The translations under genes were made by a program, and so were the position numbers. Under the pieces are notes generated by a model. It was given only the letters and a program-made list of their open reading frames with translations. It was not told the DNA's origin and ran no database searches. Positions 2,651 to 54,701 of a stretch of DNA of 64,000 nucleotides are shown in pieces; position 1 is the stretch's first letter; each line of letters begins with the position of its first letter. The stretch spans positions 105,807-169,806 of the forward strand of contig CALHNI010000001.1 in the NCBI GenBank assembly GCA_938034975.1, given 5' to 3'. Source of the stretch: Candidatus Goldiibacteriota bacterium (GTDB taxonomy: Bacteria; Oederibacteriota; PGYV01; DYJU01).

Positions 2651-2831
2651 TCGTAAAAACGCGTTTTTACGGAAAAACAAAATTTTTTTATTAGTTTTAT
2701 TTAATAAATTTTTATATTTATAATGCTTTAATTTGTGTTGTTTTAAATATTTTATTTTTTTTATATTATATATTATTTTTGTGTTTTTTTCTCCTGAAAA
2801 CCGCAATCTTTTAATAAATCCGATTTTCAGG
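2651..2831 (+). repeat. Family-B hairpin-ended miniature repeat, copy B1 (181 bp)
   Basis: The left end carries the perfect 20-nt palindrome cgtaaaaacgcgtttttacg (2652-2671). The right end is ctcctgaaaaccg...cgattttcagg. The centre matches B3 and B6 (gtgttgttttaaatattttatt). Confidence 0.75.
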
Positions 2832-10210: not shown

Positions 10211-10469
10211 GGTAGTGTGAAAAGTTTTAACGCTTTTTACTTAAAAATCCTTTTATTCATATACTTATGTTGCCTTTGTTCCCCCTTTATCAAAGGGGGA
10301 TGATTTTAGGGGGATTTACATCCATTATCTTTTTCTCGCTTTCTTTTAATTTAAAATCTCCCCTACTCCCTCTTTATAAAAGAGGGATAAATGTATATTA
10401 TTTTCTATACTTTTAGTATATATTTTAATCTCTGCCTTCTTTATTTTTCATAGAACTTTTCACATTACC
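10211..10469 (-). mobile_element. Family-A MITE, copy A4 (short form, 259 bp)
   Basis: On the minus strand it starts ggtaatgtgaaaagtt and ends aacttttcacactacc. It is flanked by an 8-bp direct repeat ctttttct at 10203-10210 and 10470-10477. It is near-identical in layout to copy A3. Confidence 0.85.
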
Positions 10470-10490
10470 CTTTTTCTCTTTATTTTTTAA

Positions 10491-10518
10491 ATAATAGCAC
10501 ATTTTTATAAAAAGTCAA
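10491..10518 (-). promoter_or_regulatory. Candidate sigma70-type promoter (TTGACT-N16-TATTAT) upstream of A4 and the 1116-aa gene
   Basis: Minus strand reads gcTTGACTttttataaaaatgtgcTATTATttaaa. A start here would place the A4 element in the 5' UTR. Confidence 0.4.
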
Positions 10519-10775
10519 GCAGAGATAAAATTGCCAAAATATTCAGTAACTTGTATAAAAATTGATTTAATAAAGTTTCTTTGGAATTTTTCTCTCGCAT
10601 CCTCAAATCTTCATAGTTATATTTTTTCTTTTATTACCGCAACCTTATAGTGCACTTGTATAAAATTTCGCAGGCATAAAGTCTGCACCTACATCGTTTT
10701 ATTTTTATTTCTCCTATTAGCAAAGGGGGACTAAAGGGATTCCCTGCACCTTCGCCTGTCAATTTTTTATTTAAA

Positions 10776-10936
10776 CTTGAAAATCGTTAGGAAATTACGA
10801 TTTTCAGGAGAAAAAAATAAAATATATTAAAAAACTTATAAAACAACACTTATGTTTTATTATTTATTTTAAAAGCTGACGAATAAAAGTAATGCGTCAT
10901 AAAAATAAAAACGCATTTTCTAATGCGTTTTTACGG
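10776..10936 (-). repeat. Family-B repeat, copy B2 (161 bp, inverted orientation)
   Basis: The reverse complement reads ccgtaaaaacgcattagaaaatgcgttttt...gtgttgtttt...ctcctgaaaatcgtaatttcctaacgattttcaag. Confidence 0.75.
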
Positions 10937-12514: not shown

Positions 12515-12677
12515 GAATGCCAATAAATAAATTTTTATTTTTTTAACACATTACTTTATTCACACGTTTTTTTATTTAAAATAAAGAACAAGTGTTGTTT
12601 TAAATATTTTATTGTTTTTAAAATATATTTTTTTTGTTTTTTCCTGAAAATCTCAATATTTTAATGCGATTATCAAG
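12515..12677 (+). repeat. Family-B repeat, copy B3 (left hairpin deleted, right hairpin degenerate)
   Basis: It shares a 45-bp identical core with B6 (aaaataaagaacaagtgttgttttaaatattttattg) and the aatgccaata left flank with B2. It ends cctgaaaatctc...gcgattatcaag. Confidence 0.6.
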
Positions 12678-21678: not shown

Positions 21679-21706
21679 ATTATACCAATTACCCTCGTAT
21701 TGTCAA
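21679..21706 (-). promoter_or_regulatory. Near-consensus sigma70 promoter (TTGACA-N16-TATAAT) for the 8-gene minus-strand operon
   Basis: Minus strand reads TTGACAatacgagggtaattggTATAATattac, about 35 nt upstream of the GGAGG-ATG at 21642. Confidence 0.6.
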
Positions 21707-21721
21707 TACAGGTAGAATTAA

Positions 21722-21932
21722 CCGTAAAAACGCGTTAGAAATTGCGTTTTTATGGAAAAACAAACTGTTTTTATCATTTTTATTTAATAAATTTTCATTT
21801 TTATAATGCATTACTTTTATTCACCTGTTTTTTAATTTTAAAAACAAATACACTCTTAAAATTCTTATTTGTTTATAAACCTTTTTATATATTTTCTCTT
21901 TTCCACTGAAAAACGCTAATGCGTTTTTCAGG
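21722..21932 (+). repeat. Family-B repeat, copy B4 (211 bp) flanked by a 9-bp direct repeat
   Basis: The sequence reads ccgtaaaaacgcgttagaaattgcgtttttatgg...ccactgaaaaacgctaatgcgtttttcagg. It is flanked by tagaattaa at 21713-21721 and 21933-21941, or 13 nt if the preceding cagg is counted. Confidence 0.8.
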
Positions 21933-21945
21933 TAGAATTAAATCC

Positions 21946-21973
21946 TTGAACTTATTTCTTAATTTGATATATT
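21946..21973 (+). promoter_or_regulatory. Candidate serS promoter (TTGAAC-N16-TATATT)
   Basis: ccTTGAACttatttcttaatttgaTATATTtat lies about 35 nt upstream of the aaggag-ATG at 22010. Confidence 0.45.
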
Positions 21974-22009
21974 TATATTAAAAAAAATTTAACAAAATAA
22001 GGAGAATAT

Positions 22010-23287
22010 ATGATTGATATAAAATTTATCAGAGAAAACAAAGAATTTGTTAAAAACGAAATTTCCAAAAAAAATATTGATCCTGTCATTATTGATGAAA
22101 TATTTAATATTGATATTAAAAGAAGGGAAAAAATTCAGGAAGTAGAAAATTTAAAAGCAGAAAATAATAAAGCATCAGGCGAAATTGCAAGATTAAAAAA
22201 AGAAGGGAAAAATACAGAAGATTTAATTAAATCAATGAAAGAAGTATCTGAAAAAATTAAAAAATTAGACGAAGAACTTGCGTTAATTGAAGATGAATTC
22301 AATAAAAAAATGCTTTTTGTGCCAAATATTCCTCATCAAAGTGTTCCTTATGGAAAAGACGAAAAATCCAATTTAGTTGTAAAAGAGTATGGCGAAAAAC
22401 CAAAATTTAATTTCAAACCAAAACCTCATTGGGAAATTGCAGAATACCTTGATATCCTTGATGATAAAAGAGCTGCTAAAATAACAGGAGCAAGATTCAC
22501 CATGTATAAAGGAATGGGATCTCTTTTGGAACGCGCATTAATAAATTTTATGCTTGATGTTCAGACAAAAGAACATGGATATACAGAAATAATACCGCCT
22601 TTACTTGTAAATCGGGATACAATGACTGGAACAGGGCAATTGCCCAAACTCGAAGATGATATGTTTAAAGTTGTTGATCCTGATTATTTTTTAATCCCTA
22701 CAAGTGAAGTTCCACTTATAAACATACATAAAGATGAAATTTTAAAAGAAAAAGATTTGCCGTTAAAATATACTGCATATACCCCTTGTTTCAGAAAAGA
22801 AGCAGGTTCATATGGAAAAGATATGAAAGGTATTGTGAGATTGCATCAATTCAATAAAGTTGAATTGATAAAATTTTCTTTACCGGATACATCCTATGAT
22901 GAACTTGAAAAATTATTAAACGACGCAGAAGAAATTTTAAAAAGATTAAATTTGCATTATCGGGTTGTATTATTATGCACGGGCGATATGAGCTTTGCAT
23001 CTGCAAAAACTTATGATATAGAAGTATGGCATTCAGGCACAGAGAGATTCTGGGAAACTTCTTCATGCAGCAATTGCACTGATTTTCAGGCAAGACGCGC
23101 AAGAATAAAATACAGGGCAAAAGATGGCAAATCATATTTTGTCCATACTTTAAATGGCTCTGGCTTGGCAACCTCCAGATTATTGCCTGCTATTTTAGAA
23201 AATTATCAGACAGAAAATATGGAAGTTATCATACCAGAAGTTTTACGGAGTTATATGGGTGGAATTGACAAAATAACAAAAAAATAG
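22010..23287 (+). CDS. serS: Seryl-tRNA synthetase
   Basis: 425 aa with an N-terminal coiled-coil arm and class II motifs (FRKEAGS, GDMSFASAKTYDIEVW, TLNGSGLATSR). Confidence 0.95.
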   Translation: MIDIKFIRENKEFVKNEISKKNIDPVIIDEIFNIDIKRREKIQEVENLKAENNKASGEIARLKKEGKNTEDLIKSMKEVSEKIKKLDEELALIEDEFNKKMLFVPNIPHQSVPYGKDEKSNLVVKEYGEKPKFNFKPKPHWEIAEYLDILDDKRAAKITGARFTMYKGMGSLLERALINFMLDVQTKEHGYTEIIPPLLVNRDTMTGTGQLPKLEDDMFKVVDPDYFLIPTSEVPLINIHKDEILKEKDLPLKYTAYTPCFRKEAGSYGKDMKGIVRLHQFNKVELIKFSLPDTSYDELEKLLNDAEEILKRLNLHYRVVLLCTGDMSFASAKTYDIEVWHSGTERFWETSSCSNCTDFQARRARIKYRAKDGKSYFVHTLNGSGLATSRLLPAILENYQTENMEVIIPEVLRSYMGGIDKITKK

Positions 23288-23320
23288 TATAGTTAATGCA
23301 AATTTACAGGAGGTTCTTAC

Positions 23321-23536
23321 ATGGAAAACAAAGAAAAACCTCAACAAACGATTAAAAAAAATAAAGCAGGACTATATATTATTGGAATATCTATACTGAT
23401 TTTAATTTTAGGTTATTATACTTTAACCAAAGTTAATGCAGATGCATCTAACTGGCAGGGAGTTGTAGCACCTATCTTAATAATAGGTGGATATATAACA
23501 ATAGCAATCGGAATCTTGGTTGGCTGGGATGAGTAA
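23321..23536 (+). CDS. Small membrane protein (2 TM), unknown function
   Basis: 71 aa with RBS aggagg 7 nt upstream and two hydrophobic helices. Confidence 0.4.
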   Translation: MENKEKPQQTIKKNKAGLYIIGISILILILGYYTLTKVNADASNWQGVVAPILIIGGYITIAIGILVGWDE

Positions 23537-23565
23537 AATAATATTTATTGTGCGTTAAACAAAGC

Positions 23566-23652
23566 GGAGGGCTAGTCCTAACTGGTAAGGCGTCTGACTT
23601 GAAATCAGATGGGAGCAATCCCATGCGGGTTCGAATCCTGCGCCCTCCGCCA
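23566..23652 (+). tRNA. tRNA-Ser (anticodon TGA), class II with long variable arm, encoded CCA
   Basis: Hand-folded. The acceptor is ggagggc/gccctcc and the anticodon stem tctga/tcaga with loop cTTGAaa. The variable stem is tggga/tccca, the T-loop is ttcgaat, and the 3' end is gCCA. Confidence 0.9.
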
Positions 23653-23722
23653 ATTTATTTTAAAATAAAATTATGCTCATTTGATTTAAATTAAACAAAT
23701 TATATATTAAATAATTTTTTGC

Positions 23723-30310: not shown

Positions 30311-31527
30311 TTTTTCTCCTCCATATAATTTTTTCTTTTACCAGTGAGTTTGATCTGCAAACCAAATAAATTTATAAAACCTTCTGCGTCTTTTTGTGAA
30401 TACACCTCCTCTTTTTCAAAAGTTGCATATTTTTCACTGTAAAGTGAAAAAGGCGATCTTTTTGAAACAGGTATTATATTTCCTTTTAATAATTTTAATT
30501 TGACTTTACCTGTTACAAATTCCTGAGTTTTATCTATAAAGGCACTTAAAGCCTCCCTTAATGGAGAAAACCACATACCATAATAAATGAGTTCAGAAAA
30601 TTTTATAGCCACTTGTTGTTTAAAATGTAAAGTTTCCCTATCCAGCGTTATCTCTTCAAGACATGAATGAGCCGTATATAAAATTGTTCCACCTGGTGTT
30701 TCATAAACTCCTCTTGATTTTATGCCAACCAACCTGTTTTCAACCATATCCACAAGACCTATGCCATGCTTTGCCCCATAATAATTTAATTTATACATAA
30801 TGTCAAGCAAATTCATTTTTCTGTTATTTATTGCAACAGGTTCTCCTTTTATAAATTCAACAGTTATAAACTCTGCTTTATTTTGTGCTTTTTCAATACT
30901 TTTTATTTTTTTAAGTATGTTATCTGGGGGTTCTTTTTCAGGATTTTCAAGAATTCCGCCTTCATGTGATATATGAAATAAATTATCATCTTCTGAATAT
31001 GGTTTGCTTTTAGTTACAGGAACCGGTATATTATGTGCTTTTGCATATTCCATTGCTTCTGTTCTTGATTTTATATTCCACTCACGCCATGGTGCAATTA
31101 TTTTTATATCAGGTGATAATGCTTTATAGGTTAATTCAAATCTGACCTGATCATTTCCTTTCCCTGTGGCACCATGTGCTACTGCATCTGCATTTTCTTT
31201 TTTTGCAATCTCTATCTGTGTTTTTGCAATTAATGGCCTTGCAATAGATGTGCCCATTAAATATTTACCTTCATAAACTGCTCCTGATTTTATCATGGGG
31301 ATTATATATTCGCTTACGAATTCTTCTCTCTTATCAATTACATAAACCTTATCAGCACCGCTGGACTTTGCTTTGTTTTTAATTTTATTAAAATCATCGT
31401 CTTGTCCAATATTTACACAACAAGCAATTACCTCACATCCATAATTTTCCTTTAACCATGGAACTATGATTGAAGTATCAAGACCTCCAGAATAAGCAAG
31501 AACAACTTTTTTAATTTTACTATTCAT
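30307..31527 (-). CDS. argG: Argininosuccinate synthase
   Basis: 406 aa with AYSGGLDTS and [13 protein letters not shown] motifs. Confidence 0.95.
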
Positions 31528-31547
31528 TATCGTCTCCTTAAAAATTA

Positions 31548-31754
31548 CCGTAAAAACGCGTTAGAAAAAGCATTTTTACGAGAATATAAAATATGTCTTT
31601 TTGGTTTAATAATTTCTTATTTTTATAGCACATTACTTTAATTCACCTGTTTTTTAATTTTAAAAACATGTTCACTCTTAAAATTCTTATTTGTTTATAA
31701 ACCTTTTTTTATATTTTCTCCTTTCCGCTGAAAAACGCTAATGCGTTTTTCGGG
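31548..31754 (+). repeat. Family-B repeat, copy B5 (207 bp)
   Basis: The sequence reads ccgtaaaaacgcgttagaaaaagcatttttacg...ccgctgaaaaacgctaatgcgtttttcggg. The centre is near-identical to B4. Confidence 0.8.
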
Positions 31755-50932: not shown

Positions 50933-50956
50933 ATGATAAGTAGTTTTTAATTTTTA

Positions 50957-51383
50957 GATAATGTGAAAAGTTCTATGAAAAAGAAAGAAGTCAGAGATTA
51001 AAATATATACTAAAAGTATAGAAAATAATATACATTTCCCCCTCTTTTAAAAAGAGGAGGCAGGCGAGATTTAAAAATAATGAATCAAATTTCCCAGAAA
51101 TCTCCTTTTTACAAAGTGGTAGAAAAAAAGAAAGAGGAGGAAAATCGCTCTTAGTCTCCCTTTTGCAAAGGGGGAGAAAAAAAATAAGAATAAGAATAAA
51201 AAATTCCTCTCTTTAATAAAGAGGGGTTAGTGGAGATTTTAAATTAAAAGAGAGCGAGAAAAAGAGAATGGATGTATGTAAATCCGCCTAAATCCTTCTT
51301 TGATAAAGGTGGAACAAAAGGCAACCAAAGTATATGAATAAAAGGATTTTTAAGTGAAAAGCGTTAAAACTTTTCACAATACC
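50957..51383 (+). mobile_element. Family-A MITE, copy A1 (long form, 427 bp)
   Basis: It starts gataatgtgaaaagtt and ends aacttttcacaatacc. It is flanked by the 8-bp direct repeat aattttta at 50949-50956 and 51384-51391. Confidence 0.85.
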
Positions 51384-51407
51384 AATTTTTATGGCAGGAG
51401 GAAAAAT

Positions 51408-54288: not shown

Positions 54289-54463
54289 TCGTAAAAATAC
54301 GTAAGAAAACGCGTTTTTACTGGAAAACAAAATTTTTTATTATTTTTATAATGCATTATTTTTATTTGCCTGTTTTTTAATTTAAAATAAAGAACAAGTG
54401 TTGTTTTAAATATTTTATTGTTTTTTTTCTTCTGAAAATCGCGAACTTTTAAAGATTTTTAGG
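54289..54463 (+). repeat. Family-B repeat, copy B6 (175 bp)
   Basis: The sequence reads tcgtaaaaatacgtaagaaaacgcgtttttactgg...aaaataaagaacaagtgttgttttaaatattttattg...cttctgaaaatcgcgaacttttaaagatttttagg. Confidence 0.75.
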
Positions 54464-54476
54464 ACATAAAAATCAA

Positions 54477-54505
54477 TTGACAACAATAATATTATTTATT
54501 ATACT
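54477..54505 (+). promoter_or_regulatory. Strong sigma70-type promoter (TTGACA-N17-TATACT) for the tRNA-Phe/tRNA-Thr (and possibly rpsP) unit
   Basis: aaTTGACAacaataatattatttatTATACTtttt lies about 30 nt upstream of the tRNA-Phe 5' end. Confidence 0.6.
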
Positions 54506-54535: not shown

Positions 54536-54611
54536 GCCGAGATAGCTCAGTCGGTAGAGCGACAGACTGAAAATCTGTGCGTCGGCGGTTCGATTCCGTC
54601 TCTCGGCACCA
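54536..54611 (+). tRNA. tRNA-Phe (anticodon GAA), encoded CCA
   Basis: Hand-folded. The acceptor is gccgaga/tctcggc and the D-arm tagctcagtcggtagagc. The anticodon stem is acaga/tctgt with loop ctGAAaa, the T-loop is ttcgatt, and the 3' end is aCCA. Confidence 0.92.
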
Positions 54612-54625
54612 TTATTTAATTTTTT

Positions 54626-54701
54626 GCCGGCGTAGCTCAGTGGTTAGAGCAACGGTTTCGTAAACCGTAGGTCGTGCGTTCAAATCGCATCGCCGGCTCC
54701 A
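54626..54701 (+). tRNA. tRNA-Thr (anticodon CGT), encoded CCA
   Basis: Hand-folded. The acceptor is gccggcg/cgccggc and the D-arm tagctcagtggttagagc. The anticodon stem is acggt/accgt with loop ttCGTaa, the T-loop is ttcaaat, and the 3' end is tCCA. Confidence 0.92.

Follow-up and report, generated by a model that had tools for sequence, protein, structure and literature searches.

What is the 211-bp repeat, hairpin-ended on both sides, that separates two divergent promoters in the genome of a Goldbacteria-like uncultured bacterium, how did it reach this place, and why does it stand at so regular a distance from the promoters beside it? The repeat, B4, belongs to family B, which has six copies (B1 to B6) in the window, by which we mean the whole stretch of 64,000 nucleotides that was analysed (G000:C1:105807-169806; AT-rich, G+C about 28%), part of a 1.93-Mb draft genome, G000 (66 contigs, 84% complete). 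Family B duplicates its target with a stagger of 5-6 bp, and its copies are placed 13-14 nt upstream of -35 boxes that existed before the insertions; active target choice is strongly supported as the cause of this placement. Taking the explanation as a whole, we consider it likely that family B is a lineage-specific, very abundant, non-coding miniature inverted-repeat transposable element (MITE).

Structure, mobility and spread of family B

The copy that raised the question is built as follows (coordinates without a contig name are those of the window).

21722..21932, + strand: B4, full-length copy of the 'long' subfamily, 211 bp (nhmmer model positions 1-211, score 188)
21722-21755 (left) and 21906-21932 (right), + strand: terminal palindromes of B4 (hairpin folds, z -4.8 and -8.0)
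21713..21721 (left) and 21933-21941 (right), no strand: 9-bp direct repeat TAGAATTAA flanking B4 (family norm 5-6 bp)

The left terminus consists of CCGTAAAAACGC, a 10-nt loop and then GCGTTTTTACGG, and the right terminus of CCTGAAAA(A/T)CGC, a loop and then GCG(A/T)TTTTCAGG. Terminal inverted repeats (TIRs) of 12 bp (left, 5'-CCGTAAAAACGC; right, CCTGAAAA(A/T)CGC) are conserved over about 100 full copies, and an inverted second copy of each TIR lies a few bases further inward, so that each terminus is a palindrome of 28-35 bp. The ends can thus be read as CCGTAAAAACGC...GCGTTTTT(AC/CA)GG palindromes, with 5'-CC...GG-3' as the outermost bases of the element. Folded as single-stranded DNA, the B4 termini reach -9.2 kcal/mol (left; z -4.8 against shuffles) and -12.4 kcal/mol (right; z -8.0); in the older copies B1 and B6 the termini have decayed. 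The hairpin termini described in the original prediction, which was made by reading the window sequence, are therefore real palindromes that in B4 fold far better than shuffles. Its further statements on anatomy also held: the left end of B1 has collapsed to a perfect 20-nt palindrome (2652-2671), the two ends are inverted repeats of each other (CCGTAAAAACGC versus CCTGAAAAACGC), and there are two core subfamilies, 'long' (B4 and B5) and 'short' (B1, B2, B3 and B6), with an identical block of about 46 nt common to B3 and B6. Family B elements are 160-215 bp long and have no coding capacity; no window copy contains an open reading frame of at least 80 aa, and all six are intergenic; an Rfam scan of the window returned four tRNAs only, with no match to family B.

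A genome census by blastn and nhmmer, using a 'short' model of 186 nt and a 'long' model of 211 nt, recovered about 266 non-overlapping loci (152 'short'-type and 114 'long'-type) on most contigs, about 108 of them full-length. The family totals 42.4 kb, or 2.2% of the genome, and 20 of 132 contig ends lie inside its copies, which puts it among the main causes of broken contigs. Identity to the consensus is 85-95% in long copies, short copies have diverged further, and many copies are mosaic, truncated or nested. The original prediction would have been refuted by a genome holding no further copies and no cognate mobilising enzyme, and about 260 further copies exist. Family B is missing from the 40 relatives that were examined, including G001, the sole other genome of the same genus, and scans for the hairpin pattern in GTDB genomes, JGI metagenome contigs, viral contigs and plasmids gave chance singletons or nothing; weak matches in G001, G011 and G015 proved to be AT-rich, partly coding DNA without hairpins. 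The expansion is recent and confined to this lineage.

Target-site duplications (TSDs) are evident when the flanks are compared genome-wide. Exact matches of 5 bp flank 15 of 50 long and 14 of 58 short full copies, for which shuffled pairings give about 0.9 and 0.8, and the total is thus 29 of 108 against about 1.7 expected. Sorted by their longest exact flank match, 14 copies have 5 bp, 11 have 6 bp and B4 alone has 9 bp, with TACTA, TGCGA, ATCCA, AAAAT and TTATA among the flanking repeats. The joined flanks of each full copy were also aligned to 1.53 Mb of G001, whose genes share 78-80% nucleotide identity with those of G000, and 29 syntenic sites were obtained, several of them clean empty sites. 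At C37:3241-3456 (duplication TTTAA) the G001 sequence is uninterrupted and has TTTAA once, at C14:18178 the empty site is exact with a single 5-bp target, and at C58:5437 it is near-exact; empty sites in related genomes, by which the original prediction proposed that mobility be checked, thus occur within the genus. In addition, nested insertions carry duplications of their own (TGCGA inside the hairpin of another copy at C31:19681, and TTGAA at C18). Duplications, empty sites and nested insertions together establish transposition with a 5-6-bp stagger, a signature typical of DDE-type enzymes. The earlier description of TSDs as mostly absent is true of the old window copies, among which B6 keeps four of five bases (ACATC/ACATA), but not of the genome, where a 5-6-bp TSD exists; the 9-bp repeat TAGAATTAA that it recorded on both sides of B4 is present.

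Two apparent variants of the element were rejected. Copies with a left half only, which might have been the ends of a longer element, are instead subfamily mosaics or truncations. Nested insertion best accounts for five 'head-to-head dimers sharing one hairpin', of which C15:16061-16478 was the one checked in detail; they are likely artefacts of the aligner, which prolongs the match to an older, interrupted copy across the hairpin palindrome of the younger.

Spacing between element ends and host promoters

For 358 defined ends we recorded the offset, that is, the number of nucleotides between the element end and the start of a -35 hexamer, read outward. A promoter was called when at least four of six positions matched in the -35 box and at least four of six in the -10 box, with a spacer of 16-18 and a sum of at least 9. 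Of the exact TTGACA hexamers at offsets 0-59, 37 lay at offsets 13-15, where we estimate from base composition that about 0.35 would fall by chance, and only 8 were spread over the remaining offsets. Full promoters gave the same picture: their -35 box started at offset 13 in 47 ends, at 14 in 32 and at 15 in 10, with 0-5 ends at each of the other offsets from 0 to 39, and 93 of the 358 ends had a promoter at offsets 12-16, compared with 6-10 in equally wide control windows. Such a promoter adjoins at least one end in 52 of the 108 full copies and both ends in five. In the flank logo, the 13-15 nt between element and hexamer show no conservation, and beyond the hexamer a TG-extended -10 box is followed by ribosome-binding sites. 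Because this spacer is unconserved, the promoters belong to the neighbouring host genes and not to the element.

The offset covaries with the duplication. Copies with a 5-bp TSD have offset 13 in 11 of 14 cases and those with a 6-bp TSD have offset 14 in 4 of 7, which indicates a constant promoter-side cut, about 8 bp upstream of the -35 box, and a distal cut that varies by one base. The -10 box matters as well: non-coding TTGACA hexamers are occupied at 13-15 nt in 34 of 122 cases when a good -10 box is present and in 3 of 71 when it is not (odds ratio 8.8, Fisher p = 2e-5), which suggests that whole promoters rather than bare hexamers are read or retained. Occupied promoters make up about 28% of the best intergenic consensus promoters in the assembly. 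The two ends are not equivalent in the long subfamily, in which a promoter at offsets 13-15 adjoins 36 of 93 left ends but 10 of 65 right ends (p = 0.0014). Finally, both promoters beside B4, including that upstream of serS, are conserved in the MITE-free G001, as are the -35 and -10 boxes at the G001 sites corresponding to C5:34977, C11:30235, C13:34700, C13:24682 and C23:42543, six or more loci in all. Promoters that are conserved at empty sites must be older than the insertions.

In the window, a whole-genome nhmmer census with hidden Markov models (HMMs) built from full-length genomic copies returned exactly six loci and no others, at 2654-2831(+), 10776-10936(-), 12532-12677(+), 21722-21932(+), 31548-31754(+) and 54290-54463(+), so that all six predicted copies are present, B2 being inverted and B3 lacking its left end, as had been described. 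A -35-type hexamer lies 13-15 nt from an end of four of them (B2, B4, B5 and B6), and the old, damaged copies B1 and B3 have no promoter at that distance. The promoters and the remaining copies are as follows.

21679..21706, - strand: host promoter TTGACA-16-TATAAT (12/12, TG) of an eight-gene operon headed by a periplasmic-binding-protein gene; -35 box 15 nt from the B4 left end
21946..21973, + strand: serS promoter TTGAAC-16-TATATT (TG); -35 box 13 nt from the B4 right end
31548..31754, + strand: B5, full-length 'long' copy (nhmmer census)
31770 (TTGAAT) to 31797 (end of TATAAT): tmk promoter; -35 box 15 nt from the B5 right end
54289..54463, + strand: B6, full-length 'short' copy with a decayed 5-bp TSD
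54477-54482 (TTGACA), then -17-TATACT: promoter of two tRNA genes (54536-54698), 13 nt from the B6 right end
10776..10936, - strand: B2, inverted 'short' copy (nhmmer census); the right end of the element is window position 10776
10762-10757, - strand: TTGACA, 13 nt from the B2 right end; no -10 box scored
2651..2831, + strand: B1, degenerate 'short' copy, after a peptidase-M50B-like gene and before mraZ
12532..12677, + strand: B3, 5'-truncated 'short' copy (model positions 50-186), between convergent nth-like and CxxCxxCC genes

Several other features adjoin these copies. The TTGACA beside the right end of B2 is followed (10468-10762, minus strand) by another repeated sequence, GGCGAAGGTGCAGGGAATCCCTTTAGTCC..., and a similar sequence follows a TTGCCA beside a family B copy on contig C10 near 19526; this may be a further repeated element or a structured leader inserted just past the -35 box. 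The left end of B5 is 20 nt upstream of the argG start codon (31527-31548; ribosome-binding site GGAGA), a gap that leaves no room for a promoter, so that argG must be transcribed from within or through B5. A 1.7-kb block with serS, a small open reading frame and a tRNA (21946-23658) is inverted relative to G001:C61:13196-14886. One breakpoint coincides with the right edge of B4 and the other (23659-23716) has no copy of the repeat; recombination between two MITEs as the cause of this inversion is thus unsupported. Between about 22000 and 32000 both GC skew and gene orientation switch, from minus strand and negative on the left to plus strand and positive on the right, with the minimum of the cumulative GC skew near 31 kb, close to B5; this is the pattern expected at a replication origin.

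Target choice, selection and the source of the transposase

The spacing could reflect where family B inserts or which of its insertions survive. If selection had produced it, in the form of near-random insertion into AT-rich intergenic DNA followed by retention at a harmless position or at one where the T-tract/palindrome end of the element serves the promoter as a UP element or operator, several observations would fit: no copy lies within a gene in a genome of which a crude coding mask covers about 89%, so purifying selection is certain; GCGTTTTTACGG at the element's end would come to stand in the UP-element zone, at about -60 to -49; and half of the copies have no recognisable promoter next to them. 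However, we do not think that selection could produce a precision of +/-1 nt with neighbouring offsets essentially empty, or the covariation of offset with duplication length. Nor does promoter association rise with copy age, the young, middle and old thirds having a promoter in 9 of 16, 7 of 16 and 9 of 18 long copies and in 12 of 19, 9 of 19 and 6 of 20 short copies. In all four evaluable tandem pairs (C16:5205, C16:6628, C3:8901 and C5:119088) the younger member is a long copy on the promoter side of an older short copy, and because the spacer within each pair is the younger copy's own 5-7-nt duplication, the same nucleotide was hit twice by independent insertions. An unrelated insertion sequence (IS) in the same genome is placed alike, and the same behaviour is a documented integration specificity of TnGBS, ISLre2 and ISKra4 elements (PMC3942029). 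We therefore regard selection as an unlikely source of the spacing. A conserved cis-regulatory cassette of a regulon (operator, small RNA or terminator), as opposed to mobile DNA, would account for copies that adjoin promoters and for palindromic ends, which could bind a dimeric regulator. It is highly improbable, given that family B is missing at orthologous loci of the same genus whose promoters are conserved, that the neighbouring genes (serS, tmk, argG, tRNAs, mraZ and nth) are functionally unrelated, that copies are duplicated at their flanks, nested and truncated, and that neither an Rfam match nor terminator-like sites were found; regulation of this kind may still be a later, domesticated function of some copies.

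The original prediction read family B as a dispersed, mobile, non-coding, hairpin-ended repeat, which stands, and linked it to a Y1 (IS200/IS605-type) mechanism, which is not supported; the main feature, a constant distance of 13-15 nt from -35 boxes, does not figure in it. Movement as single-stranded DNA by a Y1 enzyme, whether an IS200/IS605 TnpA or a REP-associated tyrosine transposase (RAYT), would suit the strong hairpins at both termini and the many old copies, most window ones included, that have no visible duplication. Y1 single-strand transposition makes no target duplication, whereas 5-6-bp duplications are about 17 times commoner here than by chance and an exact empty site holds a single 5-bp target. 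The ends are true inverted repeats, as DDE elements have, and not the asymmetric left and right ends of IS200/IS605, and no conserved tetra- or pentanucleotide precedes the insertion point on its 5' side, the flank logo having only the -35 and -10 boxes conserved. The prediction had noted that no mobilising gene is visible in the window, and we agree; a six-frame search of the whole assembly, 84% complete as it is, with Y1_Tnp (PF01797) gave no match at E <= 0.01, and 6 of 14 control genomes were positive. On the duplications, the single-target empty site and the missing PF01797 match we reject the Y1 mechanism in all three forms (Y1, IS200/IS605 and RAYT) and give it hardly any credence. Repetitive extragenic palindromic (REP) sequences and bacterial interspersed mosaic elements (BIMEs) with RAYTs, and the palindrome-associated transposable elements (PATEs) of IS200/IS605, are short, intergenic, high-copy palindromes, as is family B; they are Y1-dependent and make no target duplication, whereas family B has duplications and true TIRs in an assembly without a Y1 gene.

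Which enzyme moves family B is a separate matter. HMM searches of the assembly for ISLre2 and ISKra4 gave no match, a search for rve-type transposases found none, and one for DDE_Tnp_1 found a 35-aa scrap only. The candidate TIR pair at C10:21402-24165 encloses an ordinary secreted host protein of 766 aa between two degenerate copies, and was discarded. The only intact transposase found in the assembly, and the one real IS256-family match, is a 419-426-aa gene at C5:33469-34658 (PF00872, E = 3e-97; NF033543, 336 bits). The features that belong to it and to a second MITE family, family A, are the following.

C5:33348-34694 (locus L033/L035): IS256-family IS, 1,347 bp, inverted repeats (IRs) GGTAATGTAAAATAAATTGTGTAAA and GGTAATGTCAATAATTTTGTGTAAA
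C29, C35, C40, C50, C18, C12, C41, C25, C22, C52 and C65: further ends of this IS at contig breaks
50949-51391, 52717-53167, 54719-55027 and 10210-10467: family A MITEs, ends GATAATGTGAAAAG... / GGTATTGTGAAAAG...

The IS is multi-copy, with at least 8 further ends at contig breaks and deletion derivatives of ~283 bp; it is missing from G001, and its closest relatives elsewhere are 25-36% identical. A promoter -35 box lies 14-18 nt outside its end at 10 of about 17 junctions, namely as TTGAC(A/T/C)-17-TATAAT at 7 of 8 left IRs (IRL) and 3 of about 9 right IRs (IRR), IRL being mostly nearest the promoter; the flanks between IS ends and promoters are unrelated to each other. The C5 copy has a 5-bp flank match only (TTTAG), and two ~283-bp derivatives have none. 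Family A shares the first 8-9 nt of its ends with the IRs of this IS, and its copy at 50949-51391 is flanked by an 8-bp duplication, AATTTTTA; judged by these ends, family A is probably a non-autonomous derivative or partner of the IS. At C17:58950-59057 a solo right hairpin of family B type abuts (0 nt) a 74-nt IRR fragment of the IS, followed by a promoter and a family A copy, so that three mobile-element families are piled up at one promoter.

Cross-mobilisation of family B by this resident transposase (C5:33469-34658) would be economical: the enzyme represents the only intact transposase family in the assembly, its IS is multi-copy with at least 8 ends at contig breaks and, as the 10 of about 17 junctions show, is itself promoter-proximal; a duplication of 8 bp, as is typical of the family, would again place the promoter-side cut about 8 bp from the -35 box; and like family B the IS is missing from the sister species G001. 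Neither the ends of the IS (GGTAATGTAAAATAAATTGTGTAAA) nor its interior resemble family B, however; the outermost bases are opposite, 5'-GG...CC-3' in the IS and 5'-CC...GG-3' in family B; and the stagger, which a given transposase normally keeps constant, is 8 bp in family A, which shares the IS termini, and 5-6 bp in family B. We thus consider cross-mobilisation rather doubtful; most likely the cognate transposase of family B is not in the assembly, having been left unassembled or lost. What the two systems have in common is the genome, a promoter-proximal placement of the IS as well as of family B, and lineage specificity.

For family B as a MITE that chooses its targets, we propose that a DDE-type transposase acting in trans would make a staggered target cut of 5 or 6 bp and set the element end at a distance from the -35 hexamer of an existing sigma-70-type promoter that is 13 nt when the duplication is 5 bp and 14 nt when it is 6 bp. 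The promoter might be read through the -35 and -10 DNA directly, or by docking on promoter-bound RNA polymerase through sigma region 4 or the alpha C-terminal domain (CTD). The doubled TIR, outer and inner, may provide two transposase-binding sites per end or mimic an IR-IR junction. Promoter strength may be altered by insertion, as the terminal GCGTTTTTACGG would come to lie at about -60 to -49. A broader form of the proposal, in which promoter-bound RNA polymerase (sigma region 4/alpha CTD) is a host factor that positions family B, the IS256-family IS, TnGBS, ISLre2 and ISKra4 alike, with strand transfer about 8 bp upstream of -35, is conceivable, and we put it forward tentatively.

Several points weigh against this explanation. 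The promoters are consensus predictions, and about half of the full copies, including B1 and B3, have no recognisable promoter at either end. Selection against genic insertions must add to the intergenic bias and is not fully separable from target choice. An exact duplication is kept in only about 27% of copies, and the B4 repeat of 9 bp, or 13 nt if CAGG is counted, is exceptional within the family. No TIR pair enclosing a transposase was found in the assembly, and the enzyme class thus rests on the logic of TIR and TSD.

Promoter-targeted transposons and the place of family B

Prokaryotic MITEs in general, such as Correia/CREE of Neisseria, RUP, Nezha, Chunjie and MITEAba12, are small, non-coding, intergenic, high-copy elements with TIRs and TSDs that form subfamilies, mosaics and nested copies, and family B resembles them in each of these respects. 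To our knowledge, their TIRs are not doubled into terminal palindromes, as those of family B are; in addition, Correia elements duplicate TA, and RUP uses IS630-type targets. Family B is short and non-coding and has TIRs, a TSD of fixed length and multiple dispersed copies, all of which define a MITE. A parent autonomous IS with the same ends, which would complete the definition, was not found in this 84%-complete assembly, where absence is no proof. Family B is best filed as a MITE, with no parent IS known; docking at promoters was previously described only for a few gene-carrying transposons, and we found no MITE family described in the literature at a fixed distance from a -35 box.

Very few bacterial transposons are known to us to read promoters for a landing site. 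TnGBS integrative and conjugative elements, the ISLre2 family (p-MULT 3) and the ISKra4 group (p-MULT 4) are Mutator-like DDE elements with 8-9-bp direct repeats that insert 15-17 bp upstream of sigma-A -35 boxes, with an orientation set by the asymmetry of their IRs, symmetric IRs leading to promoters on both sides (ISKra4 group, ISLbu1); in the same survey of 2014 the IS256 family (p-MULT 1) had no promoter preference (Brochet 2009 for TnGBS and its relatives; Guerillot 2014, PMC3942029, for the survey). Like these elements, family B stands at a fixed short distance upstream of unrelated -35 boxes, 13-15 nt here and 15-17 there. It has promoters at either end, as do the ISKra4 group and ISLbu1, and its long subfamily is left-biased, as TnGBS, ISLre2 and ISKra4 are biased in orientation when their ends differ. 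The promoter-side cut falls about 8 bp from the -35 box in both groups (16 - 8 for p-MULT; 13 - 5 or 14 - 6 for family B). In contrast, family B is non-autonomous whereas TnGBS, ISLre2 and ISKra4 carry genes; its duplications are 5-6 bp (9 bp in B4) and not 8-9 bp; its 12-bp TIRs are doubled into palindromes ending in GG-3', compared with p-MULT IRs of 18-39 bp with a conserved terminal C; and its host is a Goldbacteria-like uncultured lineage without an ISLre2 or ISKra4 transposase in the assembly.

In practical terms, family B is the reason for many of the broken contigs and long gaps between genes in this lineage, it marks about 90 predicted promoters, and its repeats should not be annotated as REP elements or regulatory RNAs. 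Hundreds of MITE insertions, many of them precisely spaced, together with a MITE-free sister species that preserves the empty sites, make this small genome a natural data set. The IS256-family IS of this genome docks in a similar way even though the 2014 survey saw no preference in that family, and the geometry of the 8-bp 'ruler', shared despite differing staggers, hints that promoter-bound RNA polymerase may serve as the beacon. If the tentative host-factor proposal above is true, no other non-autonomous element is yet known to measure its position by such a ruler, and the T-tract/palindromic ends of family B, lying at about a quarter of the strongest promoters and in the UP-element zone, would modulate transcription genome-wide.

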